A DNA stretch of 63,033 bases, counting the filler, from Folioceros fuciformis (lineage: Eukaryota), in the NCBI GenBank assembly GCA_049999805.1. It is 6 parts of 6 records of this genome, joined end to end, with 100 filler letters (N's around TTAATTAATTAA, not from the genome) between each part and the next. Parts side by side here need not be neighbours in the genome. Positions count along the whole stretch, not along the records: positions 30,655 to 57,829 come from JBNGIO010001640.1; 5 more parts are not named here. The stretch is one strand, 5' to 3'. The notes beneath the pieces were generated by a model. The model did no database searches. It had not been told where the DNA came from and saw nothing but the letters and a program-made list of their open reading frames with translations. Below, piece by piece: positions 4,935-60,925 of this stretch (the first letter of the stretch is position 1; every line of letters starts with the position of its first letter). The position numbers and the translations under genes are program-made.

Positions 4935-5012
4935 TACGCGCCAAAGGGGACCCCTCAAACTTGCGTACGCGCCAAAGGGGACCCCTCAAATTTGCGTACG
5001 CGCCAAAGGGGA
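4935..5012. repeat. 31-bp tandem repeat, ~2.5 copies, at contig edge
   Basis: Unit TACGCGCCAAAGGGGACCCCTCAAA(C/T)TTGCG. Confidence 0.85.
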
Positions 5013-8851: not shown

Positions 8852-9618
8852 ACTGTTCAACTTCTCGTTTGCTGTTGTGAAGATTCTGGAAGCACAGAGA
8901 GTAGAGAAGATGAAAAAGACTGGAAGACTCCTCTTGGCACACTGCCACCTCCCCTGCAAAAGCCGACCGAAGTCGTCTAAAAGTGTGCAACACAGCGAGC
9001 AGTCGTGTGGGAGCCACCATCTTCTCTTCTCATCACTGGGGGTCTTGTGGCCTGTCCTTTCCAGCAATCAGGGCCATCCTCCTCCGTCTTCAAAGATGCA
9101 GGTGAAGTCATTGTTTTGCATTTTCTAGGTGGGATGTCTCCTAGTGCGTCATCGCTTGCTCCGATGTGCAGGCTCCTCCTTCTGCGCTGCGTGGACCGTC
9201 ACGATTCGCCCCGTCGCCAAGCTCTCCTTGTTCGTGAGAGCGCTCCTTACAGCGCGGGAGTAACGTGGCAGGACCCGACTGGTGCCTGGCGACCTTGCAG
9301 GCTTGCGCAACACGATGGAAACAAGACCTCCTGCATCGTACTTACCTCGATTACTGCCGCATCTCAAATGGCAATGTCTGTATGACGGTGGTATGGTCCC
9401 GTTCTGCCTGCATACATGTCAAAAACATAGGAACGATCCCTCACAAATTAGGAGGAAGGACCTGTTGCAAGGAGATGGAGCAAGAAAAGGGTTCATGATC
9501 AAATGTCCACACGAAGGCTTGGGAGTGCTGATTGAAGCAAACTATCTACACTGGGAGTGCTTAGGATTGGCCTCATATCCTGCTTTTCGAACATTGCAAA
9601 CTGGTGGATTGTGGGGAA

Positions 9619-15860: not shown

Positions 15861-16964
15861 TGGGTCCCAGTTAGAGCATACATCCTGCCAAATTCCATGT
15901 TTCCAGCGATGGAAGCATTACACTGTACGTACCAATCAGACTGCGGTATCCTATACCAGAGAGGATACCGGTGGTCTGAGTCAAATTGGTGGAATCGAAT
16001 TGGGAGTCAATGGCAAGAACGAGGCAAGCTCCAGATCCAGCCCGGCAGTTGGAAAGCGAAAGGAAACGTCTCATGATTTTCGGCATCCAGTTCAGTGGTG
16101 GACACACGGGTCATATTGTGAAGCTCGGACCTCGACTCTAGAAACCGACGAGGCGTTCGGATCACGGAATTGCACTGTACGTCTCTCATAGATGGTGGTG
16201 CCACCTTTCGACTTTTGCCGCACAACCAGGGTTTGTCCTGCACCGCATCTTGGCATTGGGAGAGACCTCACCCAGAGTCACCATTCTTCGTCTCAGGGAT
16301 GTATTGGTAACTAGAGGCCGGAAAGAACAAATATTGTTGCGCACGACGCGAAACTTCGCAGACTCAGGCCCGCGACCTCGCACATTCACGACCTCGCACA
16401 TTCACGACCTCGTCAGCAATCAACCCCTCCCTGCTCAGCACCGGCAACAAGAACTTTACTGACGTAGTCTCTAAGATGTACGAACCACCATGGCACAGGA
16501 TTTAGGCGTCCCTCAAAGAATGGAGGGTCCCATACGTGGGGTCCGCATTCCTTGTCCGCAGTCAGACGTTCATCTTTGGATGCGGTTTTCGAGCTGACCT
16601 CATGTCTGCCAAATGAGGAGAGCAGGAATGTCAGGAAACAAAAGATCCTGCAACATACTGTATGTAGTTGCGGTACCGTTACTACGTCTAGTACCGGTCG
16701 GCCGAAGCACGGGGTAATTGTACCTGTCGTCAGAGAGTCAGACTTTCAGATTTCCACTCCGAATGCACCTCGATAGGGCAAGGTCTCTCTCTCTTCTGTG
16801 CGTCCAAAATCTGCATGTAATCCAACAAGGAAACAGGAATGATAAACAAGTTCATCATCATCCCAACCCAGAGAAAATCCTGGATTACCATCACTTACAG
16901 GGTCAGATGCCTCCGCCTTAGACATCCAGTCGTCGCACATCTTCAAACAGTAAGCAGTGCTTCC

Positions 16965-28742: not shown

Positions 28743-28842
28743 NNNNNNNNNNNNNNNNNNNNNNNNNNNNNNNNNNNNNNNNNNNNTTAATTAATTAANN
28801 NNNNNNNNNNNNNNNNNNNNNNNNNNNNNNNNNNNNNNNNNN
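28743..28842. other. Artificial contig linker
   Basis: N44-TTAATTAATTAA-N44. Confidence 0.97.
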
Positions 28843-30554
28843 TCCTAATCCGGAGTGGTCTTACCTCAGAGATGTTGAGACAGACATCCGGATGTGCCAC
28901 TTCAGCTGAGATCTGGTTCAGACTTCAGGACCTGTATGTAGGAAGCAATCAAACTAGTCAGATGACAGCCCTGCGAAACTTACAGCTTTGTAAGATGAAG
29001 GATGGTGAATCAATTGAGAAACACCTTGGACATTTCAGAACACTTGTCTCAAAATTTGAAAGTGCTTCAAATGAGGTTCTGAAGGATGATATGCTTGCTT
29101 TGTATGTCCGTATATCACTTCCGGAATCTTGGTCACATTTCGTTACTTCCTTCAATGCTTCAAGGCTCCAAACTGAAAAGCTTGCAAAAGCTTCAAATGT
29201 GACTCTGCCAAAAACCACATTTGCAGAGTTAGTGGGAGCATTATTACAAGAAGAAGCTACAAGGCAAATTCATAGAAGGACAGGCAAGCAACAAGCACTC
29301 TACACATCTAATAGAGGACGTGGTGGAGGCAGACCTTATAACAGAGGTGGAGGCAGCTCTTCAAGGGGTGGTGGCTCACAAGGACGTGGATCCGGAGCCA
29401 GCCAAAGAAAACCAAAAAGGACAGGCAACTACAACTGGTGCAAGTTACCTGGTCATTGGGAGCGTGAGTGTCGTAAAAAGCAAGCTGGTATTCCTCGCAA
29501 GGAGGGTTCAACCAGTGCTGAAACTCATGTGGTTGTGAAGAAACAACCAACCCCTTCAGCCCTCACAGTAGGTACAATTGTGTTTGCAACAAGTTCATTC
29601 TTGTATCCTGCCAGCCTGTCAGCAAACACAAAAGCAAGGCCAGTGTCAGATTGGTATCTTGACACAGGGGCTACAGCCCACATCTGCTTTGATAAAGGGT
29701 CATTCCAAACGTACAAAACATATAAGGATCAGTATGTGTACCTAGGTGATGATAGATCCCTAGTGTCTCCTGGTCGTGGAACCATAGACTTGTCAGTTCC
29801 ATCAGGGCACTTGTTAACACTGTATGATGTTTACTATGTCCCTGACATGACTCGGAATTTGATTTCAGTCAGAAAACTCAATGCTGACAATCACTGTCAC
29901 ATTTTATTTACACATACAGAATGTCAAGTACTGGATGCTTTCAATCATAATAAAGTACTTGCCTATGGGTCTTCAGACAAAGATTTGTTTCTTCTTCACA
30001 CAGACAGTATTGTACCAACTTCAAATTTAACACATGATGCCAGTGCTGTATCTACACAACAAATAGAAAAGGTTAAGTTGTGGCATAAGAGATTAGGTCA
30101 CCCACATTCAGCAAAACTTCAGAAACTTCACAGTGATTTTTACCAAGATGGTCCTATTGGGCAGTTGGCATCTCTTCCCTTGTGTGAGACTTGTGTTATT
30201 TCCAAAAGGCATCAAGCAGCCTTTAGAAATAAAGCTCCACATAGAGCCTCTGAGGTTCAAGAACTAGTACACACTGATCTGTGTGGACCTCTATCTCAAG
30301 AATCCATAGGAGGTGGCAGATACTTCCTAACCTTCACTGATGATAAGACTAGGTTTGTCACCACCTACATATTGAAACAGAAAAGTGAGTGTTTTAGTCA
30401 CTTCATAAACTACATCAAGTATGCTGAAAGATGGACTGGAAAACAACTCAAAACATTACGATCAGACAACGGGGGAGAGTGTACTTCCCATGAATTCCTG
30501 GCATACTGTACAGCTGAGGGAATTGGTCGCCAGCTGACAGTGGTTGCTGAGCGT
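28843..30554 (+). mobile_element. Ty1/Copia LTR retrotransposon gag-pol fragment
   Basis: One open frame with gag (SLPESWSHFV), zinc knuckle (YNWCKLPGHWEREC), protease WYLDTGAT, GAG-pre-integrase WHKRLGH...CETC and integrase LVHTDLCGP...LRSDNGGE. Integrase follows protease, the Copia order. Cut by gaps on both sides. Confidence 0.95.
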
Positions 30555-30654
30555 NNNNNNNNNNNNNNNNNNNNNNNNNNNNNNNNNNNNNNNNNNNNTT
30601 AATTAATTAANNNNNNNNNNNNNNNNNNNNNNNNNNNNNNNNNNNNNNNNNNNN
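30555..30654. other. Artificial contig linker
   Basis: N44-TTAATTAATTAA-N44. Confidence 0.97.
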
Positions 30655-33699: not shown

Positions 33700-36600
33700 C
33701 TAGGCTGGAACGGACCCAAACTTCTCCAGGGTGGACCGGAAGTGCGCCACAAAAGCTTCAGTCAAAGTGGAATCATCAGCCTTCACTTTTACCGAAGTCG
33801 TTAAAGGCGACGTCATTTGCAACTCAACTAGGAAGAAGCCAGAGCCGGAAGGAGCTTCTGCTGATTGTGCATAAAAGAAGAACTTGAACTTGCCAGTTGC
33901 CATGCACTGTATAGAGTTAGCCTGCATGTGGCGGACAAGCGGTTGTGACCCTGTCAAGAGAGAAGACGCGTGCTGAGGCAGGGGTATCTCCTGCAAACAT
34001 CCACAAGATTTTGTTTAGGGAGGCCTGAAACCAATCGCGAGGGACTCACAAAGCAGCCGGTCGTGAAACAACAATTGCAACACGACAGGATGTAGAGCTC
34101 ACAAGAGCCTGGGCGACAGGCAGCAGGCCCCATTTTCGCTTGAAGCTTGCTGGATCAAGGGCTGGTATCTGCACAAGCTTCAGGATGGGCGGTGATGGCG
34201 ATCCTGACAAAGTCAAATCCCCAAAGCCAAGCAAGTCATCAACATTAGCGGCGGAAGTTGCAGGGACCGCAGTCGAGGAAATCGAAACCGAAGGAGAAGA
34301 CCGAACAGGCACAAATGGCACAGGAGAGTGGGATCTGGGCCCTAAATTTGAACTCTCATTTCCTGGAAACTCATAAGATCCATTGCTAATAGCACGATTT
34401 TCCTCCTCCTTCTCTGATGCACTGAGTAGTAGGTCGTTGTCACTTGCGTCAACACTCTGACTTGTTAACACTTCGTCAGATGAAGTTGGCCCAACGGCAA
34501 TTGGTCCTGTATCTTCAGATAATTCCAGAGGCCGATGTTCTTTGTCCAGAAACATATACGAAGGCTGAAAGAACGTGAGCAGCATCCAAGTCAGTTGTAG
34601 AAGGTACTTTTAAGTGTAGCAAGCGGACAATTGTTGCTCTAAACATGTCAGCGAGACTAATATGCGATACACACTTACCTGATGATAGACAACAGCAAGG
34701 CTGTTGAACTCATCAAAAATACGATCCTTGATTTCACTAGATTGTCTATCAGCAAACACAGAGACCGCTTGTTTTTGAGGCGAAACAACACGTTCAGCTA
34801 TTTCCACACCTTGCTGCAAAAGTCTGTAATACAAGAGGGCCCTATCATGTACATCCTGCGGGATTACAGCCAATTATCAAAAATACTAGTCTTATACTCG
34901 AGTAATTACTCTAGCCAGTCAAAGGACCAGAGTCGCACCTGATGACCATCAGCTAGACCAGAAGCCAGGGCGTTTCCCAATATTTTCTGGCTTTCTGGAG
35001 GCCTTTTGAAGAATATTTTCATAGCTGCCGTGAGCAACTCCAGACGAACCTGGACATTGAGCTCCTGGTGAGACCAGAGGCCAGAGGAAACAAACATCTA
35101 CTTCACATGATGTCCCACTTCACTTCTCTCAATGATAATATGTACGACTCTAAACACTTATTTGATCTTCAATCAAACAGGAGACAGACGTCCGCCGTAC
35201 CTCTGCAGAATCTTCCTCCACCCAGCTCTCAACAAAGCCTTCCAGGACATAAGGAGCATCCTCCATGTCATACGCATATTCACCAAGCATCCATACCAGC
35301 GCTGCTTTAGCTTTAGGTTCTTGCACAGTCTTGCTGCTCACATTACCGACAACAGCTATGCAATCATGGCTCCACTGAGGGTACTTTCGGAGCAGGTCTT
35401 TGATCAAGACCTGCAGCCATCCAACCATTCGACATCAAACACTTGAGACTTTTAACACCATTGCAGAAGAGGAGAATTGCAGATAGAACACAGACCAGAG
35501 TTTCTGCCGTCACATAGTCCTTCTCCATCTCAAGGAACTGGAGCAAACGGTCCACAATTGCATTCACATCATACTGCTCCAGTGCAATTTTCCCAACAGC
35601 TCGAATAGACTCTCTTGCAATAACCACGTCCACATTCGCTGCATACTCGCTGAGCTCGGTCACTGGTAGGCATGCAAAACATTCCTTCATTGAGTGCATT
35701 GGTAGAAATGTGCTACCATAACATCATCTGCCAAGTCATCACAGACACAGTACTCAGCAGCCATTAGTTCACACTAACCCATCCAGCCCCAATTACAACC
35801 TACCGATCTCGTAAGTGTTGTTGCTGTTGGCCACAGCAGTGAGCATCTCGAGCTTCAACTTCTTGACATACGATGGGTCACTGTACCGGCAGTAAAAATG
35901 TTTGTAGTCATCAGCAAATAGCACAGGAGCCCGAATCACTAGTAGGTGCAGATGGGCAAAAACTGCGTAGGATTGCTCTGCACTTCCAGAGCTCACAAGT
36001 GTGAGCAATGGAGCCTTTATACGCTCATAAACCTGCTCCATTTGCAGAACTGAACTTTTAGAGGCATGCATTGCTTGGTGGTCCACTCACCTACCAGTAA
36101 ATCACGCAAAACATACTGCTTGCAATACCTGTTGGTGCACATCTGCCATTGACATCGTCATCTGAAGGAATACTTTAATGCTCGCCAAAACTACAGCACT
36201 GTTGGCATGCTGTAGCCTGTCTTCCAACAGATTCATTATATCAAATATCTCATTCGCATCTGAAGGAACATACTTGGTGATGATATCAAGAACCAGACAT
36301 TGTGCCCATTCAGAGAATTCCTTGATCCTGCACGGCTAACAAAAGTTACAGGCCTGTGACCACATTCGTTGAACTGTGCACAGTTTAAACAGGACCTGTT
36401 CATACCTGTTCAGCAGCGCAAAGATGACAGGCCTGCTGAAAAGGTATTCTCTGTCTCGACGTGCAGACTCACTCTTGGCAGCTTCTGCCCCGAAGATTTC
36501 CAGCAAAGCACAAAGACAGTTGGCCACGACCTACAGCAGAACTCCCCTCAGCAGCCATCTGGGCGAATCTGCGTTTTCTGTAATTGCTCTGTGGCGCCCA

Positions 36601-37179
36601 AGTCAAGAGGAGTGAAGAACAACATTTAAGAGGTGAAGGACGAACCTGTGCCTCTGAGTCATTAAGAAGTAGCGCTTTGAGTGTTGCAGGGAGCTCATTC
36701 TCCAGGCAGGCAGCGGGAGCAAGCTGATACAGCTTGAGCACACCCATCGATGCCACCATCCTCACATACCCGTGGTAATCTTTAAGCCCCACTTGCAGAG
36801 GCCTGACCAAGTACTCCACCAGATTCTTCACCCTGAGGGAGCAAAGGCTTCTCAATGCAAGCCCCCGAATCATAGGGTTGTCATCCTGGCAGTCCTTCTG
36901 CAAAAAATTGATGGTGAGGAGGGCTAGATCGGGGCGAACCCTGGCGTAATTCCCGACATACAAGTAGCACATTTTCTTGAGCACGAGATCCGACGTGGCT
37001 GAGCACATCACCATCTCGCTGAACAGGGGCGACATATCACTGCCGATAGTCATATAAGATATCACCTTCTTGTACAGCTCCCTCTTCACATCCTCCACAC
37101 CGGGAGCACGACTTCCAGCAAGCTGCCGGAGCTGAGTCTTGAGCTCCGCGAGCTCACCTTTCCTGTTATCAGCATTCAT
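33700..37179 (-). CDS. AP4B1: AP-4 complex beta subunit (beta-adaptin-like protein A)
   Basis: KGELAELKTQLRQLAGSRAPG, KKVISYMTIG, NPMIRGLALRSLCSL, YCRYSDPSYVKKLKLEML and DVHDRALLYYRLL, plus a C-terminal appendage exon. The true first exon may lie upstream of 37179. Confidence 0.92.
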
Positions 37180-38087
37180 GTTGACGCGTTTCAACAGCCT
37201 CAAGGCGGGAGACAACCCTAACCGCGGCAATCTGAGGGCTCAAATCCAGCTCCCTCGAAACATGCAGATGACCAACAGACCTCAGCACCAACTCTCCATG
37301 ATTCGGCAGCGGAGTACAACCAGATCCTCCACCACCGTCTTAAGCGACTCAAATTCTCCCATTTCAGCTCAAGGTAGGTCGTGCACAGGCAGGAATCAAC
37401 ACTTCATCCAGCATGGAGCACCGCGTGTCCGGGGATGTGAGGTCATATTCCAACGCAAATCACAACCACCTCCACCACCAGCATGAGGGCAAGCGATTGC
37501 AACGATTGCCAGCTTTCAGCATCCCCGGATCCCCTGCGGCACATGAGGGAGAAGAAGATGTACAACAGAGATACTGGCAAGTGCAGCGAGAGGAAGAGGT
37601 CGTCCATGGGGGTTACCGATTCACTCATTCACTACCAGGCTGGGCTCTTGAAATTTATTATCGTGAAGCTCGTTTGCCATTGAAATTCTCGGGTTGAGGG
37701 CTGAGTGTGGATATACACATGTACCCATGTCTAAGCATCGATGCAATATTATATACATTCTTCAAAATATAAAATATTTCTCTTGAGCGCGAAAACTTAA
37801 TGGGGAAGGGCCATCCTACACTGGACGAGACAGCACATCGGAAAGGTGAGCGAGCTTCTTCTATGGGCGAGCTTCCCTGTTTTGTTTCGGGTTGAAGAAA
37901 TCATGTTTTTCTACTTGGCGAGTGTTAATCAGTTCATGCAAATCGTGCAATCGAAATCCGGGAGCAAGGGAGGTCGTTGAGTGGTTGGACATGAGCCACA
38001 GAGACATGGCAGCAGAGGCAAAGAAGGAGCGGTAATTGGGCATTGGAATATCAGGTGGAGGGCTATGGGCTGGTTTGTGAAAGAGGT

Positions 38088-41000
38088 ATGGCTGGGTGGA
38101 ACGTGGCAGTTGTGTCACGTAATGGGCAAGAACAAACGTTGTGGGGACAGTCATTGTTGTTCCAACGGAGTGGTGGGTTGGTAGTTGTTGGAGGAAGAGG
38201 TCGAGTCCACCATTCCTTGAGGGACAGGACGTGGGAAAATAATGAGGCCCCGATGGGCACAGCTTTTGCAAGAAAGCAAGCCCGTCCAAGAGCATCTGGA
38301 GACGGATGTGGAAGGGAGAGGGGTCTCCGGCACGACGTCTTGTGGCAACAGTCTTTTCTGGACCCGACACTTTGGGTGGATGACAGGCAACACAAAAGGA
38401 GTGTACATTTGCCTGACTTTCGGCACAGGGAGACCCAGCAGGGGCTCTGGCTGAGCAGCCTTCACAAGCCAGATTGGGTGGATGGAGAGCTGGCTGCTCT
38501 GCACATGCGGATGGCGCGTCCTCCGGGGCCTGCAGGATACTGCATGGACGTGACGTGTGAGACCGTGGCAGGTCTGTGTGATGGGGGGAGGTCAGTGAGG
38601 CCGTGGAGGCTCTGGGAGTTCTGGTGCACAGGGATGTTTGTATTACGAAGGCTCTGTTTTGTGGGGTGCCGAGAAGATGTGTGGGTGAGACGGGGCTGGT
38701 TCTGGGGAGGCGTGTTCATGCTCTCGTGGTGAGGAGTGGATGTGAGAGGGACGCGTTCTTGTGCAACCATATTCTGCGGATGTACTCTTGTCATGCGAGA
38801 TTGGAAGAAGCTATGGGTGTGTTCGATATGGCTGCTCACCCTGATGCTTTCTTATGGTCTTCTATCATGTCCGCGCTTGTGAAAGATGGGCAAGACGCGC
38901 AGGCTGTGACGCTGTATCGTCGGATGCGCACGTCCAGTGTGAAGGCAGACGGGCATGTGTTTGTGGCAGCGCTTCAGGCTTGTGCGAGGGGAAGAGACTT
39001 GGATTCCGGGGTGCAGGTGCATGCAGATATGCTGGCTCATGGCGTTGAGTTTGATTTGTTTGTTGGGAGTTGTTTGGTTGATATGTATGCCAGGTGTGGG
39101 AGCTTGGAAGACGCTCGAAGAGCGTTTGACGGGCTTTCTCGGAAGAATGTGGTGACGTGGAGTACCTTGATTGCAGGATACGCGCAGCAGGGCATGGGAC
39201 GGGATGCCCTTTGTCTTTATAGGACTATGTTGGAGGAAGGAGACGTCGCACCCAATTCTGTGACCTTCGTGGGCCTTCTACAGGCGTGTGCAGGTGTGGG
39301 TGCTGCTGCTTTGGAGGAGGGGAAGCAGCTTCATGTGCAGATTAGAGAACGTGGGCTTGAGGCCGATGTAGTTGTAGGTGGGAGCCTGGTGAACATGTAT
39401 GCAAAGTGTGGCAGCCTGGAGGCGGCGCGGAGTGTCTTTGAAGGACTTGGTCGGAAGAATGTGGTGACTTGGAATGCCATGATCGCAGGATATTCCCAGC
39501 AGGGCATGGAACATGAAGCCCTCTGTCTTTTTACGGTTATGCAAGAAGAAGGAATGGCTCCCCCTGATGCTATCACACTTGTGTCACTTCTGCAGGCATG
39601 TGCAAGCGTGGGCACGTCAGCCTTGGAGACGGGGAAAGGAGCTGCATGCACAGATTATGGAACGAGGTTTGCAGGCTGACGTTGTTGTTAGTGGCAGCTT
39701 GGTGAACATGTTTGCAAAATGTGGAAGTCTAGAACAGGCTCGGAGTCTGTTTGATGGGCTTGGTCAGAAAAGTGTGGTGACATGGAATGCCATGATAGCA
39801 GGATATTCGAAGCAGGGGATGGTGCAGGAGGCCTTTCTCCTCTACAGTGCCATGCGGGAAGAAGACATCATTGGGTCTGATTCTGTGACTTTTGTGTGTC
39901 TCCTACAGGCGTGTGCGAGTGTGGGCACTCTTGCTTTGGAGAAAGGCAAGCAGCTTCATGCCCAGATAAGAGAACGCGGGCTGCAGCTTGACTTAGCTGT
40001 ATCTGCGAGCCTGGTGAACATGTACGCCAAGTGTGGGAGCCTGTTGGATGCTCGGGGAGTGTTTGACGCGCTTGATAAAAAGAATGTGGTGACGTGGAGT
40101 GCTATGATAGCTGGATACTCCCAGCAGGGCATGGGGCAGGACGCTCTTGGGTTATACAGGGCTATGCAGCAAGAAGGCGTGGTTGCAGTTGATTCTGTGA
40201 CATTTGTGTCTCTGCTGCAGGCATGTACAAGCGTGGGTGCCATGGCTTTGGAGGTGGGGAAGCAGCTGCATGGACAGATAACAGATCTAGGTCTTCAAGC
40301 TGATGTAGTTGTCGGTGGTAGCCTGGTTAACATGTATGCCAAGCGCGGGAGTGTAGAGGATGCTCTTGGAGTATTTGAAGAACTTGATGAAAAGAATGTG
40401 GTGACATGGAATTCTATGATATCAGCCTATAGCCTGGGGGGAATGGGGCTAGAAGCCCTTCGTCTTCATGCTGCTATGCAAGAAGAAGGTGTTGTTGTTC
40501 CCGATACCGTCACATTTGTGTGCCTTCTGCAGGCATGTGCAAGTGTGGGGAAACAGGCTTTGGAAAAGGGAAAGCATCTTCATTCACAAATTCGGGAACT
40601 ACAGCTTCAAGCTGACGGGTTTGTGGCTAGCAGTTTGGTAGACATGTATGCAAAGTGTGGGAGCCTAGAGGATGCTAAGGGTGTGTTCGACGGACTTGAT
40701 AGCAAAAATGTGGTGACTTGGAATGCTATGATAGCGGGATATTCCCAACAGGGCATGGGACATGAAGCCCTCCGTCTGTATTGTGGAATGGAAAGCGAAG
40801 GCTTTGCCGCACCTGATTCTGTAACAATTGTGTGCCTCTTACAGGCATGTGAGAGTATGGGCAACCCAGCTTTGGAGAGCGGGAAACAGCTTCATGCCCA
40901 AATCAGAGAACGAAATCTCGAGGCCGACGAGTTCGTGGCTGGCAGTTTGGTCAACATGTATTCAAAGTGTGGCAGCCTAGAAGATGCTCAGGCCTTGTTT

Positions 41001-41999
41001 GATGGTCTTGGCCAAAAGAATGTGGTGATGTGGAATTCCATGATAGCAGGATACTGCCAACAGGGCATGGGGCAGCAGGCGTTTGGTCTTTACAGGGCTA
41101 TGCAAGAAGAAGGCATGGTTACACCCAACTGTCACATTTGTCTGCCTGCTTCAGACTTGCGCCAGTGTCTCAGCTTTGCATCTTGGACGGCAGCTTCATG
41201 AGAATATCAAAACAGAAGGGCTTCAGGCTGATGTGCTCGTGGCTGGCTCTTTGTTAGACATGTATGGGAAGTGTGGAAGCATGGTGGATGCACGGCAGGT
41301 ATTCGATGCTTTGCCTGAAAGAGATGTTGTCACCTGGGGTGCCCTAATTTCCGGATACACCCGACAGGGAGACAGTGAAGAAGTCTTTGACTTGGTTGTC
41401 AGGATGGAACAAGACGGCATAGAGCCAGATGGTATCACGTTCTTGAGTCTACTGACAGTGTGCAGTCAAAGGGTCTCTTGAACAGGGGGCAAAAATACTT
41501 TGAGGCTATGAGCGAGTGCTATGGCATCACTCCCACCTTGGAGCACTACACGTGCATGGTGGATCTCCTGGGTCGTGCTGGGCATCTAAATGAGGCACTA
41601 GCCTTGGTAAAGTCAATGTCAGTAGCGCCAAATGCTGCAATCTGGCATGCTCTATTGGGTTCTTGTCGAAAGTGGAGTAATGTGGAGGTGGGATCCCATG
41701 CTTTCCATCAAGTGCTGAAGCTAGACAAGGAAGACGCTGCAGCTTATGTGTTGATGGCAAACATATACACCAGTGTACACATGTGGCAGGAGGCTCTGGA
41801 GGTGCAATCGCAGAGAAAACAAACGGGGGCTTGGAAGCAGCCAGGCCAGAGCTGGTGGACGGACAAGGATGGACTGGTCCACACGTTTTTGGTTGGGAAT
41901 ACGAGGCAGCTGGGGCCAAGGCAAGGACGAAACGGAGGGATTAGGGCTCCTTACGGCTCAATGGCCGTAGGTGAGCCTGGTTGCCTCATGACAGCCTAG
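38088..41999 (+). pseudogene. PLS-class PPR RNA-editing factor, DYW:WW-type PG box, truncated DYW, four frameshifts
   Basis: Intronless P-L-S triplets at ~312-nt period, then P2-L2-S2-E1-E2 and KQPGQSWWTD..VHTFLVG. No HxE/CxxC before the stop. Frame changes at ~38592, ~39632, ~41129 and ~41468. Confidence 0.85.
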
Positions 42000-44757: not shown

Positions 44758-46608
44758 ATGGACCAGGAGGAGGGCAGCCAGGACGTGAAGCTGGTGCTGG
44801 GCCACAAGCTCTTCCTTCTCCGATCACGCGATGTGCCCGACATCGAGAAGGTTCAGCTCAAGGAGGATGCCCTGGCGATCATCTTTGCCGACGGTGGGTG
44901 CGGGTATGCTGTGCGGGGTTGATCGTTTCCAGGGCGGTCTGGGGAGGCGGAATGAAATCACGGAGTGTACGCTGATGTGGCTGCAGATATGGTTTCGCTC
45001 TACGAGAGCCTCAGCGGTGAGCTTGGATGGGAGGTGGACCAGGCTCGTGTCAGCGCTATGCATGCCAGAATTGAGGAGGAAGTGAAGAAACTGGATGAAA
45101 AGCAAGTGTTGTTTCTCGTCTGGGGCGTCTTTTGCTCGCCAGTGGTGAAGCGAGCTGACCCGGCATTGTTGTGTGTGCAGGATTGCCGATGCGGAAGAGA
45201 ACTTGGGGGAAAGCGACGTTCGGGATGCGTTGCTTGCGAAGGCACTTTGTTATCTTCGGATTGGTGATAAGGTGCCTGCTGTTGTGTGTGGTTGAGGCTC
45301 TTGGTGTGGTTTGGCACGTCCAGAGAACCTGACGATTGGGTTTGGTCTGTTGGTGTGTTTTTGTCCAGGAGAAATCCCTGGAACAACTGAAAGTCACAGA
45401 AGCCAAGACCGTGGCTGTTGGTCAGAAGATGGACCTTGTGTTTCATACTCTCAGGCTGGGGTTTTTCCTCTTGGATTTTGATTTGATCTCCAAGAACATT
45501 GACAAAGCTAAAAGGTAAGATTTGTTTTTGCGTAACAGGCTGTTGTAACCATGGTACCTCGTGAAGCGCGACTCTTAAATGTGTTCTACTGTCTGTAGCT
45601 TGTTCGAAGAAGGTGGAGACTGGGAGCGAAAGAATAGGTTAAAGGTCTACGAGGGCCTATTTGCCATGGCCACAAGAAATTTCAAGGGAGCTGCCCAGCT
45701 GTTTCTTGATTCGATCTCTACCTTCACGACCTATGAACTTTTCTCATACGACACCTTCATTTTCTACACTGTCCTTACAAGCATAATCTCGCTTGACAGA
45801 GTATCCCTGAAGCAACAGGTACTGCGTTACCCTCTTGCATGCCGTGGAGGGTTCTTTGTTTCCAGTTTTGTATGCTAGTTTCAAACTTGTAACACTGTCC
45901 GACAGGTGGTGGATGCCCCAGAGATCTTGGCGGTTATCGGCAAGATTCCTAATCTCGCCGACTTCTTGAATTCTTTGTATGGCTGTCAGTACAAGACGTT
46001 CTTCATTGCCTTTGGTAAGGGCAGTCTTACAGCGTCGCCCCTGATTTTCTATGTTGGCCAACCAGATAAACTGAGCATCATGACGTAAAAATATTTGATT
46101 TAGTTCACCGTGAATCTGGACGTGGTGATGTGTTCCAGCCAATTTGACAGACTCAATCCGGTTGGATCGGTTTCTCTACCCACATTTCCGATACTACATG
46201 CGAGAAGTCCGGATGGTGGCCTACTCTCAATTTTTGGAAGCATACAAAAGTGTGACTTTGGAGGCTATGTCAAGAGCCTTCGGCGTCAGCATGGACTTTC
46301 TGGACATGTAAGTCAGGCGGGAGCTGGGGTGTTTTGCCTTACTCTTGCTTGCTTGCCTGCCTATCCACGTTACTTTGTAGCGCTGCTGTCCAGCGCCACA
46401 CGCACTGATAATCTGCTGTTACTACTGCTGCAGGGAATTGTCACGTTTCATAGCTTCGGGTAGGCTCAGCTGCAAGATTGATAAGGTAGCTGGTGTGCTA
46501 GAGACTAATAGACCTGATGCAAAGAATGCACTGTATCAGGCTACCATCAAGCAAGGCGATTTTTTGCTGAACCGCATCCAAAAGTTATCCAAAGTAATAG
46601 ATCTGTGA
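44758..46608 (+). CDS. RPN7: 26S proteasome non-ATPase regulatory subunit 6 (RPN7)
   Basis: Exons [49 protein letters not shown] and [30 protein letters not shown]...KVIDL*. Confidence 0.96.
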
Positions 46609-47190
46609 GATTTGCCTCCTTCATCTGGAAAAGTGGTGATTGTCTTCTATGCTTTGTGACGAGTTGATAACGCATGAAGTACTGAGGTTGAGCGCCAAAC
46701 AAATGGGCTGTAACCTAATTTTCATTGCGGAGAGCTCTGCGCTTCTTGCTTTGCGGCGTGGATTGTGTTGTCTCCATGTCCGCCAGTTGAATCGCGACAC
46801 ACTTTCTGCTGTTATAGGTTCCTCACACGCAACTCTAGCTCTAGGACCAGCAGCGGTTTGTACATGAGAATCAATCGCTGAGCGAGAAGCGACGAACCTA
46901 TCCCTGTCCCCAAGCAAGAGCGGAGGGTTATATAAACTAGATCAGCCTAGGAACAGAGGAACCAGCTTGTTGCGTACGCCGATGCTGACTCGAGGCATGA
47001 ATAAGATATGAACTCCTTTCTTTCTTAATTTCTTTTTGATCTCTCTCCGGGTACAAAGTTGGATACATACTTGCATAGTTGCGTTGATTTTCTCAGCTCT
47101 CATCGTGAAACACAGGCGAAGGTCTTAGATCTACCTTGGTTCAGCTGTAAATTCCTCTAGGATTGGTTCCAACCGCGGTCCTTGAGGAAG

Positions 47191-49716
47191 ATGCCCATAG
47201 TGTGGCAACCGGACCCGTTGCGGATCCAACAAGTTGGTTTGTGTACAAGGATTGCACAGGGAGCTCCTGCTCACCTCCTCATCTGGAGTCAACCTCTGGT
47301 AAACAGAACCTGTAGGTATGGCAGTGTAGAAGGCCCAGCTCTTCCACTTCCGAGAAACTGGCTGGGTAGAGACGCGTTTTCCAACGATGGTGGTTGCCAG
47401 GAGCCCTTGTGCCAACATCATTTTCCTCCCACCACAAGAGATAAGAAGAGCGCTCGTTTGCCTGACTTCCTGCGTAAGCCGGAACAGCTCGCTTCCTTGG
47501 GTGCACAGATGCGCTATGATGCCTCTTCCGACTCCAGCTCTTCGAATAAGCCTAAATCTGGCAGGCATGAAGGATTGAGACTGGGTGTCGTGACGGGTGA
47601 AACGGTGAGCACATTATGTCAACAGGGGAAGCTTCCTGAGGCCGTTGAGGCCCTGGAAGCTCTGGCAGAGGCAGACTTTGCCATTTCTCAGTCTCTGTTT
47701 TACACTGTGCTTAAACTGTGTACAGCTAAGAGGGATCTTGTTGTGGGGCGACGAGTGCATGATCTGAGTGTCAAACTTGGGTACGAGTCGAATGCATTCT
47801 TGGGGAACCATATCTTGCGCATGTATGCTTGTGGAGGTAGGCTAGAGGAGGCCATGGATGTGCTCACCAGGGTGGCCTACCCAAACGCATTCATGTGGTT
47901 TTCCATGATCTCCGCGTATGCTAAACATGGGCAGCCTGAGGTGGCCGTACGACTGTATCATGAGATGCGGATGTCTGGGGTGAAGGCGGATGCTCACGTC
48001 TTCGTGGCTGCCCTTCAGGCTTGTGCATTTGCTGGTGACTTGAAATCTGGCAGAACAGTGCACTGGGATGTGTTGCACAGTGGCATTCCTCCTGACCTGT
48101 TTGTTGGCACCGGCCTTGTGGACATGTATGCGAAATGTGGTGAACTGGAAGATGCACGCCACGTTTTTGACAGCTTGGCCACGAAGAATGTTGCGACATG
48201 GAATGCCCTGATAGCTGGATATTCCCAGCAAGGTCTTGGACAGGAGGCGCTTGTTGTGTATGGACAAATGGAGCAGGATGGGTGGGTTGTGTGTAACCAT
48301 GTTACGTTTTCTTGCCTTCTGAAGGCCTGTGCAAGCAGCGGTGCCTTACAGAATGGGAGGCAGCTGCACTCTCAGATTGTCCAAAGAGGGCTGCTGGATA
48401 ATGTAGTGCTTGGAACCTGCCTGGTGGACATGTATGCGAAATGCGGTGAACTGGAAGATGCACGCCATGTTTTTGACTGTATGTCCGCAAAGAATGTGGT
48501 GACCTGGAATGCCCTGATTGCCGGATACGCACAGCAAGGTCTCGGGCAAGAGGCGCTGCTTGTGTGTGGACAAATGGAGAAGGAGGGCCTCAGTGTGCCT
48601 GACGATGTTACATTTTCTTGCCTTCTGAAGGCCTGTGGAAACACTGGTGCCATACAGAAGGGCAGGCAGCTGCACTCGCAGATTGTTGAAAGAGGACTGC
48701 TGGATAACGTAGTGTTGGGCAACTGCCTGGTGGACATGTATGCAAAATGTGGTGAAATGGACGATGCACGCCAGGTTTTTAACAGCATGAATACAAAGGA
48801 TGTTGTGACATGGACCGCCCTGATATCTGGGTACGGTACTTGTGATGAAGGTCACAGGGCTCTAGCTTGTTTTGAGGAGATGTTAGTTGCTGGTATTCAG
48901 CCTAATGATGCTACTTTTACCTGCCTTTTGGTGGCATGCAGTCATGCGGGACTGGTACACGAGGGTCGCAAGCACTTTGGCTCCATGGCTGAACAGCATG
49001 GCATCAACCCTTCTGTAGACCATTACGTTTGCATGATTGATCTTCTTGGGCGTGCCGGCCATTTAGATGACGCAGAGAAGATGCTATTATCATGCGAAGG
49101 CCAAAGTAGTGTTGTAGGCCTGAGGTCTCTGTTGAATGCCTGCAAAAGCCACGGGGATATAAAGAGGGCAACGTGGTGTTTTGACAGCATTGTTAGGCTG
49201 GACCCCCAAGATGCGCCGGCATATGTGCTCATGGCAAATGCCTATGCAGATGCAGGTAGGTGGACCGATGTAGGCAGGATTGAAACACAGAGAAGGGTAG
49301 CAGGAGCCAACAAGAAGCCTGCAGTAGTGACCATTGAGGTGAACAAGAAAATACATAAATTTGTGGTGGGAGAAATGAAGGAGGATATTGCTCTTAATCT
49401 GGAGAGCATGAATGCACGACTGAAACAAGAAGGAGGCCACGTACCTCACACAAAGTTGGTGTTGAGGGCACTGTGCGAGAAGGAAAAGGAGGATGTCCTT
49501 TGTGGGCATGCTGAAAAGCTAGCTCTGGCGTTTGGTCTCTTGAACACTCCAAGTGGGACACCTCTGGTGGTAACCAAGAATCTACGCATGTGCACTGACT
49601 GCCACAGTTCCACGGAAATCATGTCAAGGCTCGAACGAAGAGAAGTTGTTGTAAGGGATGGGTACCGTGTGCATCGATTCGCAGCCGGCTGTTGTAGCTG
49701 CAAGGGGCGGCCGTGA
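47191..49716 (+). CDS. PLS-class PPR protein with DYW:KP (GRP-ending) domain; candidate U-to-C RNA-editing factor
   Basis: Intact intronless ORF with L-S-(P-L-S)x3-P2-L2-S2-E1-E2, then KKPAVVTIEV, LCGHAEKLALAFGL, KNLRMCTDCH and RDGYRVHRF..CSCKGRP*. First in-frame ATG is 47191; the actual start may be downstream. Confidence 0.93.
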   Translation: MPIVWQPDPLRIQQVGLCTRIAQGAPAHLLIWSQPLVNRTCRYGSVEGPALPLPRNWLGRDAFSNDGGCQEPLCQHHFPPTTRDKKSARLPDFLRKPEQLASLGAQMRYDASSDSSSSNKPKSGRHEGLRLGVVTGETVSTLCQQGKLPEAVEALEALAEADFAISQSLFYTVLKLCTAKRDLVVGRRVHDLSVKLGYESNAFLGNHILRMYACGGRLEEAMDVLTRVAYPNAFMWFSMISAYAKHGQPEVAVRLYHEMRMSGVKADAHVFVAALQACAFAGDLKSGRTVHWDVLHSGIPPDLFVGTGLVDMYAKCGELEDARHVFDSLATKNVATWNALIAGYSQQGLGQEALVVYGQMEQDGWVVCNHVTFSCLLKACASSGALQNGRQLHSQIVQRGLLDNVVLGTCLVDMYAKCGELEDARHVFDCMSAKNVVTWNALIAGYAQQGLGQEALLVCGQMEKEGLSVPDDVTFSCLLKACGNTGAIQKGRQLHSQIVERGLLDNVVLGNCLVDMYAKCGEMDDARQVFNSMNTKDVVTWTALISGYGTCDEGHRALACFEEMLVAGIQPNDATFTCLLVACSHAGLVHEGRKHFGSMAEQHGINPSVDHYVCMIDLLGRAGHLDDAEKMLLSCEGQSSVVGLRSLLNACKSHGDIKRATWCFDSIVRLDPQDAPAYVLMANAYADAGRWTDVGRIETQRRVAGANKKPAVVTIEVNKKIHKFVVGEMKEDIALNLESMNARLKQEGGHVPHTKLVLRALCEKEKEDVLCGHAEKLALAFGLLNTPSGTPLVVTKNLRMCTDCHSSTEIMSRLERREVVVRDGYRVHRFAAGCCSCKGRP

Positions 49717-50498
49717 CAACAATGGGGAGTAGCCAGTGTCCAAATGTGTACGCAAGGGAATCTGAAACTATCACGGTTCGAGAAATGCACAGCAAGGCTT
49801 CAATGAACGTCCGCGTCCGGTAGGCCTTCTCTCGAGATTTCTGGAGGCCTGACTGAGCCTCCAGATACCGTGTTAGCGGCTGTCGATGCGAACGTTTTTC
49901 TTGAAAGCTTTTTCAGGGCAAGGGCTATCAGGTGGAGACCTTGGAGGCCTGTCTCGCTCGCTTGTGGAACAAACCTCCAGCTCCACACAGAGATCCTGCA
50001 TGGAGCTTACAGCAGTTGTCTGATCAAGAGTGGTGACAGGTTCTACAGCCGACGTCTCACATTGCCCACAACAGCAGCATCCTGTCTACAGATACAAATT
50101 CGTGCCGATGGATTCTCTCGAAAAGAGTCCGATAGGATGGTGACCATGTTCAAGACCTGAAGGGGTCGGAGTGGCGGATGTCCAGTTGGCCATAGCACAG
50201 AGCCTCAACAGGCTGTCAGACGGGATAACGGCGGAAAGTGGATATTGCACGAACTAACAGGCGCCGTCCATATTGACGTCGACTACTTAGACGCCGTCTG
50301 AACCGGGGCCGCTTGAAAAGAAGGTACATATATATGTAATGAAGGAATTTAATGCAATTTGCTAGATGGAAATGAACGTGGCCAAGAGTCGCGTCCAGGT
50401 GAAGGAGATGGCGAGGAGAAAAGCGTGACTGTCTACATAAAATCCAGAATTGAGGAATCAGAACCAGAGTAGGAACTGGACCAGGAGAAGCCATAGCG

Positions 50499-52053
50499 AT
50501 GGCGGCGGCGGCCCTTCTGGAGGACGCCGAATGGCACTCCTCTTTGCTCAAGAATCTCTACTACGCGCTGGGCTGGTTTGCATTTGCGGTCTGGTCCATC
50601 AGCTTTTATCCCCAGGTTCTGCTCAACTACCGCCGCAAAAGGTGATTCTCGTTGTTGTTGTTGCCGGGATGCCCCGCCTCCCGTCACTAGATGTGCATTC
50701 GGTTGGTGACTGATTCAGTGGAAGCTGATGAGTGTGGCAGTGTGGTTGGGCTCAATTTCGACTTTTTATTTCTCAATTTCACCAAGCACACATCCTATCT
50801 GGTGTACAACGTGCTGCTCTACTACAACCCTGTTGTGCAAAGTCAGTACCGGGAGAAGTTTGGAGAATCTGAGGTGCAGGCGTGCATGCAATTGAACCCT
50901 GTCGTAGGAAGCTACTGCTTTCCCGGATTTGTTGTGAGGGTTTCACTCGGTTGGGCTGGATCGGACTGATGTGGTCATGGTTGCCAAACAGCTCATCCCG
51001 GTAGCGCCAAGTGATGTTGCTTTCTCCGTCCATGCAGTGCTGCTTACCAGCATCACTATTGCGCAGATCTATATTTATGAGGTGCAGTGGAGTGGAGGTC
51101 ATGTGTTTAATTTCTCGTTCTTGCAATAGTGTGCTGCCTTGCTGAGTTGTGCTGCAGCTTGTTTTGTAGAGAGGAGCTCAAAAAATATCTCTGCCTGGTA
51201 TTGCCATCACCGTAGCAGCTTGGGGGGCAGCACTTATTTTGGTGATTGTCTCCTGGGCTAAGGGACAGTGGCTTTGGATTGCTCTAGGGTTCAAGTAAGA
51301 ACTCTCTGCAGAAGGATGAGCGGATGCTGTCTCACTTATTCCTGCTTACGTGTTTGCTGAAGCATTTGTCTGGGTTTGATATTGCAGTATCATACAAGTT
51401 ACCATGACAGCAATCAAGTATATACCTCAGGTACAGAGCCGTCGCGCATGTTACACCAACTTAAAAACAAAGATGGCGGATCCGACATTGTCTGACGGAT
51501 AATTTTTGTCTTGATGCACAGGCATGGTACAATTACGTGAGAAAGAGTACTGTGGGCTGGAGTATTGGAAACATTCTACTGGACATTTCTGGTGGCCTGG
51601 CCAGTCTCGTGCAGATGAGCGTTCAGTCCATTGATCAGAGTATGGAGCCTCAGCTGTCATGCCCTGCTCTTGTTGACTATCCCAACTGGGTTTTCCAACC
51701 ATAGATTGTATTACCTACTGGAATGGTGTCTGCAGAATCGTGGGTGAATTTCACAGGGAATGTGGGAAAATTGGGTTTATCTTTGGTGAGTAGTATCTGG
51801 AACGATGTGCGTTGCTACGTTACTCTCTCCTCTTGAGCCTAACTGAATCACTGCTCGTGTGCAGGAAACGGTTGTGTTTGATATCCTCTTCATTATTCAG
51901 CACTACGTGCTGTACCGTCAGAGAGCCGGGGACGACTCCTACCATGCTATCGGGGATCCCGAATCAGAGGTTGGAAAGCCACAGGGTCATGAGCACCATG
52001 AAAATCCATTCGTTTCTCAAGACGGTCACCCTGCACCCGGGCAAAATCCTTGA
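50499..52053 (+). CDS. CTNS: Cystinosin homolog (PQ-loop lysosomal/vacuolar transporter)
   Basis: [51 protein letters not shown] and [13 protein letters not shown]. Confidence 0.95.
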
Positions 52054-57829: not shown

Positions 57830-57929
57830 NNNNNNNNNNNNNNNNNNNNNNNNNNNNNNNNNNNNNNNNNNNNTTAATTAATTAANNNNNNNNNNNNNNN
57901 NNNNNNNNNNNNNNNNNNNNNNNNNNNNN
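57830..57929. other. Artificial contig linker
   Basis: N44-TTAATTAATTAA-N44. Confidence 0.97.
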
Positions 57930-60825
57930 TGAATCATGTCAGGATACCTGTGGGGCTTGACTCGGAGCCAAACAAACTGGCCAACGGAGTAGTTGACGTC
58001 GCGTTGGTGACGGTTTGCTGTGATGCAAGTCCGGTCTTGTGCTGCTTGGAGTTTTGTTGAGCCATCTTGGCCTTGTGCCAAATGTCCTCGGTGATTTCAA
58101 CAGCGCTTCGCCACTTGTCTTGACGGTTGGGCCATAAGCCTGAAGGTGGGGGTGTCTCACCATACAGGAGTTTGAAGGGAGTAACCCATGTGGCTGCGTG
58201 CTTCAAGGAATTGTACGCATACTCCAATAAGGGAAGGAGTTCCTCCCACTTCGTCTGCTTCTCGTGTGTGACGAAGCATGTCTTCTAACACCTGATTCTG
58301 CTTCTCTGTCTGGCCGTCCGTCTCTAGGTGATAGGCTGAAGACATGTTCTGTTTGATGCCTAGTGTGTCCATGAAGTTCCGCCAAAACCCGAAGGTGAAT
58401 TTTGCATCCTTGTCCGACACAATGTCCTCTGGTGTTTCGTGTAATCGGAAGATTTCACGAACAAAAAGGGTGGCCAGTTTGGGGGCAGTGATGGTCGAGG
58501 TGACTGGAATGAAGTGGCAGACCTTGGAAAACCTATCTGTCACCACCCAAATGCTGTCCTTACCAGAGCGGGTACATGGTAGGTGTGTAATGAAGTCCAT
58601 GGCTATTGACGGCCACTGTGGATTTGGAGGGGTTGGAGTAGACCTGGGTATTTCTGACAGCTAGGTTTGGCTTGTTGGTAGGATTGACAGGAGTGCACCT
58701 ACTCTATGCAATCGGAGCGCATGCCTTCCTAGTGGAAATGCTCCCAAACCTTGGCATAGGTTTTGTCAATACCCAAGTGCCCCGAGATTGGGGAATCATG
58801 CACATAATGGAGGATGGCCTGTTTGACAGCAGTGAGCTAGGAGGGGATGACCAACCGGCCCTTACGATAAACACAGGCATCCTTGAGGGAATAGAGTTGG
58901 GTAAGTGCTGTGGGAATACTTGTTCCTGCATCTGCTAAGAGATTTTGATACAGCTACCACAACTCTAGGTCTTGAGGCAATCCATCCCGGACTAACTGCA
59001 CCGTTTGGGACTGTGTGGTCATGAGTGTGCAGGCTCTCCTGCTCAAGGCATCTGCGACCACGCTAGAAGTCCTAGTGACATACTTGATCCCGAGGTCAAA
59101 ATCCGCCAGGTATTCGGCCCACCTACACTGTCTGGAGTTGAGGTTGGGTTGTGAGAAGAAATGTTGCAAGGAGTGGTGGTCTGTGTGACACACCACCTTC
59201 TGGCCTAAGAGGTAAGGCCTCCACACCTTGAGAGCGTGGGTGATTGCCAATATCTCTTTGTCATGTATAGCGTAATTCAACTGTGCCCCTTGCAACTTCC
59301 TGGATTCGTAGACAATAGCTCGACCCTGTTGTGACAGTACTGCACCCATAGCAAAATCTGATGCGTCTGTGTGCAGGGTGTATGGGGCTTGGGGGTCTGC
59401 CACCGCTAGCACGGGAGCCGACCTAAGGGCTTGCTTGAGCTGTTCAAATGCCTGGATAGCCGCTGGCTCCAATTGTAAGTGTTTGGTGGTTGAGTGCCTG
59501 AGGGCATCCGTTAGGGGAACAGCTATCTTACTGAAACTTTGGATGGAGCGGCGGTAAAATCCAGCCATGCCCAGGAACCCACGTACTTTGTGTGATATCT
59601 TGGGGTAGGGGCCAGTCCACCACGGCTTTGAACTTGCGGGGATCTACCCGGATACATGTTGCACTAATGATGTGGCCCAGGTATTCACAATCTTGCCTCA
59701 TGAAGTCACACTTACTTCTTTTGGCCAACAACTTGTTTGCACGTAGCAGCTCAAGTACCTTTCTGACCAAGGTGTAATGTTTCTCTAGGTCAGGTGTGTA
59801 TATGAGGATGTCGTCGAGGAAAACTTCTACGCCGTGCCCCAACAATGGTCGTAAGATGTCTTGCATGAGACATTGGAATGTTGCAGGTGCGTTTGTCAAG
59901 CCAAACGGCATGACCCTGAACTCGAAGTGGCCATGTCTTGTGCGGAAGGCAGTTTTAGACTCATCCCCTTCCTTGATCCTGATCTGGTGGAAGCCAGATC
60001 TCAGATCAATCTTGGTAAACCACTTTGCACCATGAAGTTGGTCCAGGATCTCATCGATCCTCGGCATCTGGTAGACATTTCTGACTTTGGCCCGGTTGAG
60101 TCCTCGATAGTCAATGCATAGTCGCCAACCACCATCTGGTTTGCCAACAAGAAGGACTGGAGCTCCGAAGGGGGACACTGAAGGGCATACAAACCCTTTC
60201 TGTAGAAGTTCGCCTACTTGTTTTTTTATTTCCTCGTTTTCAGTGGCTGACGTACGATATCGCTGGATACTGATGGGTTTATGGCCTGGCAGGAGCTCTA
60301 TGGCATGGTCGATAGGACGTCTAGGGGGGAGTTTTGCTGGTTCGGTGAACACATCTTGGAACTCCTGTAGTAGTGACTTCATGGTGGGTGGTAGGAGTTC
60401 CTCATGAGCCTTGGCTTCTACAGCTCTGGACTCTGGGGTTCCTTCTAGGGGTAAGACTTTTTTCAGCTTAGCTACGTACATGAACCTGCCAGAGGCAATG
60501 GCTATATTGAAAGCAGATACTGCAAACAACTAATTGTCGGGGGTATATTGTTCACCCTGCATGGTGTATGTCTTGTCCCCCTTTGTAAGACTCACTATGT
60601 TAGACAACTAGTCTATGTCTAATGTGTGGGTATGCTTGGCCAGCCAGGGCTTACCAATAATAATGTCATGACACAAGGACGACATTACAGTCAGCTTGAA
60701 GACTTCTGCAAAACCACCTGGGAAGGTGACTAGTGCATCAGTCCACTCTTCCTTGCTGGTTTCATGCTCGCCCAATGGTGTCACTACTGTGGACACATGT
60801 CCTGAGGTACGGATCTGCAGGCCAA
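57930..60825 (-). mobile_element. Ty3/Gypsy LTR retrotransposon pol fragment, degenerate
   Basis: Protease tail (DIIIGKPWL), RT (WRLCIDYRGLN, KIDLRSGFHQIRI, VMPFGLTNAPATF, FLDDILIY), RNase H (HTDASDFAMG, DALSR) and integrase (MDFITHLP, ETDGQTE) in RT-RH-IN order, with frameshifts and stops. Confidence 0.95.
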
Positions 60826-60925
60826 NNNNNNNNNNNNNNNNNNNNNNNNNNNNNNNNNNNNNNNNNNNNTTAATTAATTAANNNNNNNNNNNNNNNNNNN
60901 NNNNNNNNNNNNNNNNNNNNNNNNN
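60826..60925. other. Artificial contig linker
   Basis: N44-TTAATTAATTAA-N44. Confidence 0.97.

Follow-up and report, generated by a model that had tools for sequence, protein, structure and literature searches.

The window analysed here is a stretch of 63,033 nucleotides (nt) of the Folioceros fuciformis genome (NCBI GenBank assembly GCA_049999805.1), composed of six parts joined end to end, in which positions 30,655 to 57,829 come from record JBNGIO010001640.1. Within this part, positions 47191-49716 on the + strand contain an intact gene for a PLS-class pentatricopeptide repeat (PPR) protein, the C-terminal domain of which is of the DYW:KP class and belongs to its GRP subgroup. As judged from the predicted protein, the gene most likely encodes a functional GRP-type DYW:KP factor acting in organellar U-to-C editing. 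All features of the gene given below lie on the + strand.

A single open reading frame (ORF) extends over 47182..49716 (+) and specifies 844 amino acids (aa) when counted from a TTG codon. Its first ATG is found at 47191, which gives a coding sequence (47191..49716) of 841 codons followed by the stop codon at 49714-49716, and no intron was seen in it. An in-frame stop lies immediately 5' of ATG 47191, which is also the sole ATG within 47115-47193. The 841 codons were translated without any internal stop, in agreement with the uninterrupted frame announced by an earlier note on this DNA. Assuming equal codon use, a stop-free frame of this size would arise by chance with p ~3e-18. This length, together with the Pfam matches described below, excludes a chance ORF. 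A second in-frame methionine (Met107) at 47509 would yield a form of 735 aa; nevertheless, Met1 was preferred because 47191 is the first ATG of the contig-covered stretch. Exact look-up of the 841-aa and 735-aa forms in a collection of 15 billion proteins retrieved neither of them. The best full-length relative of the PPR protein showed 57% identity, and no close orthologue was found.

Pfam searches of the predicted protein matched PPR (3.8e-68), E_motif (2.7e-12, residues 654-716) and DYW_deaminase (6e-32), and also PPR_1, PPR_2 and PPR_3. When motifs of standard length were placed from the C-terminus backwards, the resulting motif parse was contiguous and presented all the elements of a PLS-class PPR protein with an E1-E2-DYW extension. 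The first PPR motif is preceded by an N-terminal extension of 135 aa (47191..47595), presumed from the sequence to be the organelle-targeting part. Its residues 1-60 include 6 R+K and 2 D+E, and its comparison with the N-terminus of relative P0016 revealed no significant likeness (best E 0.69). The PLS-type array, supported by the parse, Pfam and an AF2 model, comprises 15 motifs (47596..49110) ordered as a short P-like motif, L1 and S1, three P1-L1-S1 triplets and a final P2-L2-S2. The P1-L1-S1 triplets are visible in the DNA as 306-nt direct repeats of 83-86% identity. The array is followed by the PPR-like motifs E1 (49111-49212) and E2 (49213-49314), identified by the parse and the Pfam E_motif match, and by the DYW:KP domain of 133 aa (49315..49713), assigned to the GRP subgroup by Pfam, matches in PDB, profiles and trees. 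The residues at the fifth and last positions of the motifs are SS, YN, NN, FD, VD, TN, NN and SN in motifs 1-8 and TN, ND, SN, ND, TN, TS and VS in motifs 9-15, with RD in E1 and VK in E2.

The AF2 model, built for residues 136-841 from an alignment with 30 relatives, had a mean pLDDT of 88.5 and a pTM of 0.78, and displayed paired helices along the whole array and a C-terminal domain of mixed alpha/beta structure. Its sole poorly modelled part (pLDDT <50) was an insertion at residues 600-636 of the model, between strand 2 and helix 2. The best fold match of this model in PDB was 9kfx_A, a synthetic PPR-DYW protein with RNA (E 1.7e-38, TM by target 0.79); other PPR proteins came next. At sequence level, the last 202 residues matched 9kfx (5.6e-57), the DYW domain of OTP86 (7o4e, 6.5e-29) and DYW1 (7w86, 1.9e-28).

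The published marks of DYW:KP domains are a K-P pair in place of P-G, A or C in place of S after the zinc-binding histidine and a variable C-terminal triplet (PMC11845758, PMC9478123). In addition, these domains span 132-133 aa without xHP, as compared with 136 aa in DYW:PG domains, have M92 where the PG class has V95 and carry a universal Lys88 (PMC11845758, PMC9478123). Hornwort KP proteins have been divided into the DRH and GRP subgroups, and those of tracheophytes cluster apart; GRP proteins have lost the terminal aspartate and bear a glutamate in place of the PG-class K103 (PMC9478123). Every DYW:KP mark that could be checked was found in the domain studied here. Domain positions were counted over the 133 residues from the K of K-P, and this numbering was checked by the correspondence of A66 with S69 minus 3.

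The class assignment was based on relatives obtained from two database searches. The first gave 54 proteins with E <=1e-3 among 778 candidates; the second gave 4337 with E <=1e-3 in 1.84 billion, and the best 150 of these 4337 were taken. The searches together contributed 201 relatives, and the 178 whose domain reached the C-terminus were kept. Among the 54 C-terminal relatives, the 33 closest all have H-A-E and a non-DYW end (GRP in 4, DRH in 10), and the 21 more distant ones all have H-S-E, with D-Y/F-W as the end of 20. A tree was then constructed with 97 rows, namely all 53 with H-A/C-E (our protein included), 40 taken at random from the 122 with H-S-E, and 4 others. Our protein fell in a clade of exactly five GRP rows (Shimodaira-Hasegawa approximate likelihood ratio test, SH-aLRT, 98), and a branch with support 100 separated 44 rows, 43 of them labelled PG. 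As a control of circularity, the tree was repeated after the columns of the KP box, those of positions 66, 88, 92 and 101 and the last residues had been removed. Without these trait columns, the GRP rows still stood on one side of a branch (86), and our protein remained in a set of 23 GRP and DRH rows (97).

Profile comparisons agreed with the trees. The reference sets of KP (51 rows) and PG (104 rows) domains were home-made and defined by two traits, with our protein excluded from all profiles; 18 H-S-E rows with other endings were left out of the PG set, and one H-C-E row ending in D-Y-W out of the KP set. The domain scored 201.8 bits with the KP profile, 199.1 bits with the KP profile without its GRP members (47 rows) and 151.7 bits with the PG profile. 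The highest score was given by the GRP profile (222.6 bits, 4 rows), and the DRH profile (10 rows) reached 213.8 bits. On the basis of its sequence, the domain is thus of the DYW:KP class and GRP subgroup. The classification proposed in the earlier note is borne out by the KP grouping in the trees, by the 201.8 versus 151.7 bits and by all the checkable diagnostic positions. Clustering with PG/WW domains, which that note had named as the result that would contradict it, appeared neither in the trees nor with the home-made KP and PG profiles.

The four strings that had been quoted as diagnostic were all recovered at their places by translating the exact coordinates: the ten residues KKPAVVTIEV replacing the PG box (49312-49341), H-A-E-K (49507-49518), C-T-D-C followed by H (49591-49605), and the end of the protein, with C-S-C (49693-49701) and the terminal triplet G-R-P (49705-49713). 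The K-P pair that replaces P-G, identified by translation and alignment, is at 49315..49320. The residue after it is A, as in 41 of the 51 KP rows, while G is present in 99 of the 104 PG rows. Position 5, which in the PG class is a lysine-tethering serine (S in 95/104 PG rows, A in 46/51 KP rows), is V. The H-A-E motif (49507..49515), also placed by translation and alignment, provides the zinc ligand His65, Ala66 and the catalytic Glu67. Position 66 is A or C in all 51 KP rows and S in all 104 PG rows, although the two sets are partly defined by this same column. Conservation of the HxE glutamate, highlighted by the earlier note, was seen as Glu67, but it is no distinctive trait, being universal in KP domains (51/51 rows). 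Lys88 (49576..49578) was located by position count, and its role is taken from PMC11845758. Met92, found in 47/51 KP versus 13/104 PG rows, precedes the CxxC zinc ligands Cys93 and Cys96 and then His97 (49591..49605), which are invariant in the 51 KP and 104 PG rows. All the residues of the DYW-type fold are therefore present (H65, E67, C93, C96, H97, H120 and C-S-C at 127-129), the first six being invariant in the 155 reference rows.

Position 101 is E in our protein and non-K in the 4 GRP rows, versus K in the 10 DRH rows and in 100/104 PG rows, and thus agrees with the K103-to-E change reported in GRP proteins (PMC9478123). With 133 aa, the domain has a gap at four columns, beginning with H-P, that are filled in 101/104 PG rows, and HMMER showed the same gap against 9kfx and 7o4e. 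Terminal G131-R132-P133 stands in place of D-Y-W; 4 of the 51 KP rows end likewise and fall in one clade with our protein. None of the three DYW:PG marks looked for (P-G box, H-S-E and terminal D-Y-W) was present, since all of them are replaced.

The region 46000-50700 was compared with four sequencing runs: X1, guessed to be DNA, X2, guessed to be RNA, and two that come from other organisms. Exact X2 contigs, with 0 other letters, lie on 47115-47824, 47846-48009 and 48880-49050, and a further contig starts at 49666. The first of these (X2 record 18, 710 nt, 0 other letters) includes a 5' untranslated part at 47115..47190. The breaks between the X2 contigs fall inside the repeat array, amid thousands of short paralogous pieces. 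One spliced X2 contig skips 46308-46433, with GT..AG ends, and another joins 50321 to 50397, the 75 nt skipped (50322-50396) beginning with GT and ending with AG on the + strand. Across both of these neighbour introns X1 is unspliced (record 1 on 46000-47820 and record 7 on 50211-50497). Splicing in X2 but not in X1 indicates that X2 holds processed transcripts of both + strand neighbours. The PPR gene is transcribed, as parts of it are covered by exact, genome-collinear contigs of this transcript-bearing run. None of the X2 pieces listed lies on 47025-47114, between the last covered base of the upstream gene and the PPR contig, and X1 spans this interval. The other organisms' runs gave only short pieces of 90-95% identity on the gene, mostly on segments of conserved motifs, and the contigs of these two runs on the gene revealed no orthologue.

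Regarding the adjacent genes, the upstream one (46138-47024, +) is spliced in both X2 and X5, skipping 46308-46433 with GT..AG ends, and its coverage stops at 47024, which leaves 167 nt up to the PPR start codon. On the other side, a 2048-nt X2 contig starts at 49666, within the last ~50 nt of the PPR ORF, and enters the downstream + strand gene, which has an ATG near 50499. This contig (49666-50641) suggests that the PPR 3' end and the 5' untranslated region of the neighbour overlap or are read through, and points to a very tight gene spacing. Moreover, in four runs with three organism labels, the short contigs that pile up at >=90% identity on the PPR repeats and the DYW region (47700-49770) number 2431 to 16765 per run, which points to families of near-identical motif segments that are very large in these organisms.

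For the activity, the direction of editing, the target and the compartment of the protein we infer the following. The protein would enter the plastid or the mitochondrion, its 15 PPR motifs together with E1 and E2 would bind some 17-18 nt directly 5' of one or a few uridines, with one motif per base, and the C-terminal zinc domain would convert the target uridine into cytidine. To predict the target, the S2 motif was presumed to align with base -4. According to the PPR code, N at the fifth position specifies pyrimidines and S or T purines, and at the last position D specifies U or G and N specifies C or A (PMC12733224). Applied to the P and S motifs in this register, the code predicts A at -13, -10 and -6, C at -16 and -12, and U at -9 and -7; the L motifs weakly favour A at -11 and -8.

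The chemical step can be modelled on designer KP proteins, in which Lys88 is proposed to attack C4 of the uridine to form a covalent intermediate, the resolution of which is aided by Glu67 and the zinc site (PMC11332814, PMC11845758). When Lys88 is changed, designer KP2, KP3 and KP6 lose U-to-C editing and become C-to-U editors (PMC11845758). In the structure of OTP86, K915, which precedes the first cysteine of CxxC by five residues, forms an ion pair with the catalytic glutamate and is held there by S828 and S893 in the inactive state (PMC7611903). Our alignment places K915 at Lys88, and S828 and S893 at positions 5 and 66, which are V and A here. A lysine freed from both serine tethers, as the alignment suggests, fits the role of a nucleophile.

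Several points weigh against assigning U-to-C editing to this gene. U-to-C sites in the organelles of the host are an assumption, and the U-to-C activity, the target and the localisation proposed rest on class membership. Lys88 is not discriminating, as it is K in 51/51 KP and 102/104 PG rows, and by itself proves nothing. The KP and PG sets are founded on two self-chosen traits and not on the published DYW:PG/WW/KP hidden Markov models; the RNA status of X2 is a guess, and its contigs yield neither transcript ends nor levels. Furthermore, positions 5, 6 and 130 set the protein apart from the other GRP rows, and its end branch (0.28) is the longest of the GRP clade. Its differences from those rows amount to V instead of A at position 5, T instead of G at 6, K instead of E at 47, G instead of A at 116 and K instead of G at 130, and by its sequence it is a somewhat divergent GRP member. 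Eight positions are known to tune designer KP6, and at five of them (17, 64, 113, 119 and 133) the protein fits the KP/GRP consensus, but not at 6, 47 and 116. It does not have the U-to-C-favouring consensus at 47, where it has K (E or D in 31/51 KP rows), or at 116, where it has G (A in 34/51 KP, 4/4 GRP and 10/10 DRH rows). Besides, it carries the C-to-U-favouring residues G64 and V113, although both are KP and GRP consensus. Designer KP6 edits in both directions, and the proportion of the two changes with single substitutions (PMC11845758); with an enzyme of this class so bidirectional and tunable, the editing direction is not safely readable from the sequence.

These data give some weight to the alternative that, despite its KP-type domain, the protein is a C-to-U or bidirectional editor. 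KP6 shows both activities in human cells, and E64G, L113V, F133H or any K88 change turns it towards C-to-U (PMC11845758). Our protein retains the zinc site and Glu67, which deamination requires. However, G64 and V113 are usual in KP rows (42/51 and 38/51, respectively) and occur in 4/4 GRP rows, Lys88 is present, and the tuning data come from a fern-type and not from a GRP background. In addition, the GRP-based KP2 and KP3 gave U-to-C editing with no detectable C-to-U in E. coli (PMC9478123). Altogether, we consider such an activity unlikely.

The departures from conserved subgroup positions could also be expected in a transcribed but functionless or redundant paralogue without a current site, that is, a recent product of family expansion heading to decay. 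The family is very large, as the short contigs at >=90% identity (2431-16765 per run) over the 4.7-kb stretch compared indicate, a frameshifted PPR array is found 5.5 kb upstream in the window, and the closest full-length relative is as distant as mentioned above. Nevertheless, the frame of 841 codons is open; no zinc ligand has been lost, nor has Glu67, Lys88 or any of the 43 columns that do not vary among 31 relatives; and exact contigs of the transcript-bearing run cover the gene, all of which makes a relic quite improbable. Some PLS proteins work without catalysis of their own, and the protein could then be mainly an RNA-binding factor, engaged in stabilising, processing or recruiting, with a catalytically idle DYW:KP domain. 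This is very improbable for a domain that is complete (133 aa) and conserves the full catalytic set. Organellar U-to-C editing by a GRP-type factor is the most likely reading.

The frameshifted array just mentioned is a second and longer PLS-type PPR array (38582-41996, +), located ~5.5 kb upstream on the same strand, with at least 7 repeats of ~312 nt (one spacing being 313) of 60-75% identity. It can be read only in three different frames and has a PG-type box at its end, after which no recognisable DYW domain was seen. Decay or truncation of a PG-type paralogue could explain it, and so could assembly errors that introduced the frameshifts. Elsewhere in the window, 36472-37239 (-) contains a beta-adaptin-like exon of the AP-4 beta type (Pfam Adaptin_N, 3.8e-36), the best named relatives of which, with 76-86% identity, are from liverworts, mosses and lycophytes; no near-identical named match was obtained. 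Together with the GRP and DRH relatives of the PPR protein, both subgroups being those of hornworts (PMC9478123), this exon makes a hornwort nuclear genome the most likely source of the gene. Several ORFs in 6925-12771 (-) match PQQ-like beta-propeller families (PF01011, 1.2e-09; PF13360), and the similarity of the C-terminal ORFs at 9622-10233 and 12184-12771 suggests tandem paralogues. An ORF at 21168-21851 (-) has leucine-rich repeats (LRR_6, 3.7e-09). Ten runs of 44 N, arranged in five pairs (4835-4934, 28743-28842, 30555-30654, 57830-57929 and 60826-60925), correspond to the joins between parts. Finally, long ORFs between the pairs at 28.7 and 30.6 kb and between those at 57.8 and 60.9 kb, such as 28791-30599 (+) and 59531-60529 (-), look like candidate mobile-element coding regions.

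With respect to the published work, the DYW:KP class, its GRP subgroup and their link with U-to-C editing were already in print (PMC9478123, PMC11845758), as the earlier note had recognised, and its mention of engineered KP domains with U-to-C activity corresponds to the published designer proteins (PMC9478123). The background statements of that note, among them the confinement of DYW:KP domains to lineages with organellar U-to-C editing (hornworts, ferns and some lycophytes), are likewise in print. Hornworts are reported to have more than 1400 PPR proteins (PMC10030945), so that one more intact member is expected and not surprising. The activity of natural KP proteins was still called unknown in 2025 (PMC11845758). 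In the accessible parts of the literature searched, including a review of December 2025 and an assay paper of October 2026, no characterised native KP protein was mentioned, subscription papers and supplements lying outside this search. Designed KP proteins appear to stall in bacteria, crosslinked to RNA (PMC11332814, PMC11845758). Among pyrimidine editing reactions, U-to-C editing is the one least understood, and an intact, expressed native KP gene of the subgroup whose consensus designs are active is a reasonable candidate for a first native assay. There is a slight chance that this divergent native GRP protein, which departs from its subgroup at two positions (47 and 116) that tune the direction of KP6, has properties that consensus designs lack, such as full turnover without a trapped lysine-RNA crosslink or another preference for neighbouring bases; it could then become the first native U-to-C enzyme amenable to biochemistry. 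A hornwort genome is likely to contain many such genes, there is nothing special in this one beyond its departures from the subgroup consensus, and its value is that of one catalogued candidate and not of a discovery.

The protein was compared with four groups of known systems. With DYW:PG domains (OTP86, 7o4e; DYW1, 7w86; the synthetic 9kfx) it shares the fold, the zinc sites and the E1-E2 motifs in front. It differs from them by the replacement of P-G, H-S-E and D-Y-W, the missing HP insert, the two non-serine residues at the lysine-tethering positions and a PG profile score 50 bits below that of KP. Like the fern and lycophyte KP proteins, represented by KP6 and the Adiantum protein P0030, it has the K-P box, H-A/C-E and a non-DYW end. 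However, P0030 is ~50% identical to it in the C-terminal region, tracheophyte-like rows are in separate tree clusters, and KP6, with a U-to-C editing of ~50% (PMC9478123), also edits C to U. The DRH proteins, on which KP1 was based, are of the same class; our protein scores 213.8 bits with their profile and joins them in the 23-row set (97). They differ in keeping the terminal aspartate and in having K101 and C6, each in 10/10 rows. KP1 itself is regarded as inactive in E. coli because, among seven designs, only KP2, KP3 and KP6 edited (PMC9478123).

The closest likeness is to GRP proteins and to KP2 and KP3, which were built mainly from GRP sequences and in E. coli achieved U-to-C editing of ~26% and ~22%, respectively, with no C-to-U detected (PMC9478123). 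Both designs also edit U to C in human cells (PMC9478123). The traits in common are K-P, H-A-E, Lys88, Met92, the 133 aa without xHP, the loss of the terminal aspartate, the glutamate for K103, G-R-P and the PLS-E1-E2 arrangement. The earlier note had considered the chemistry of the protein not evident; it is less open than this implied, as the active KP2 and KP3 were built from the same GRP subgroup. Unlike these designs, which were compared by their published description, the gene found here is a natural single gene and not a consensus, and the nearest GRP row has at most 70% identity to its product in the domain and 57% over the full length.

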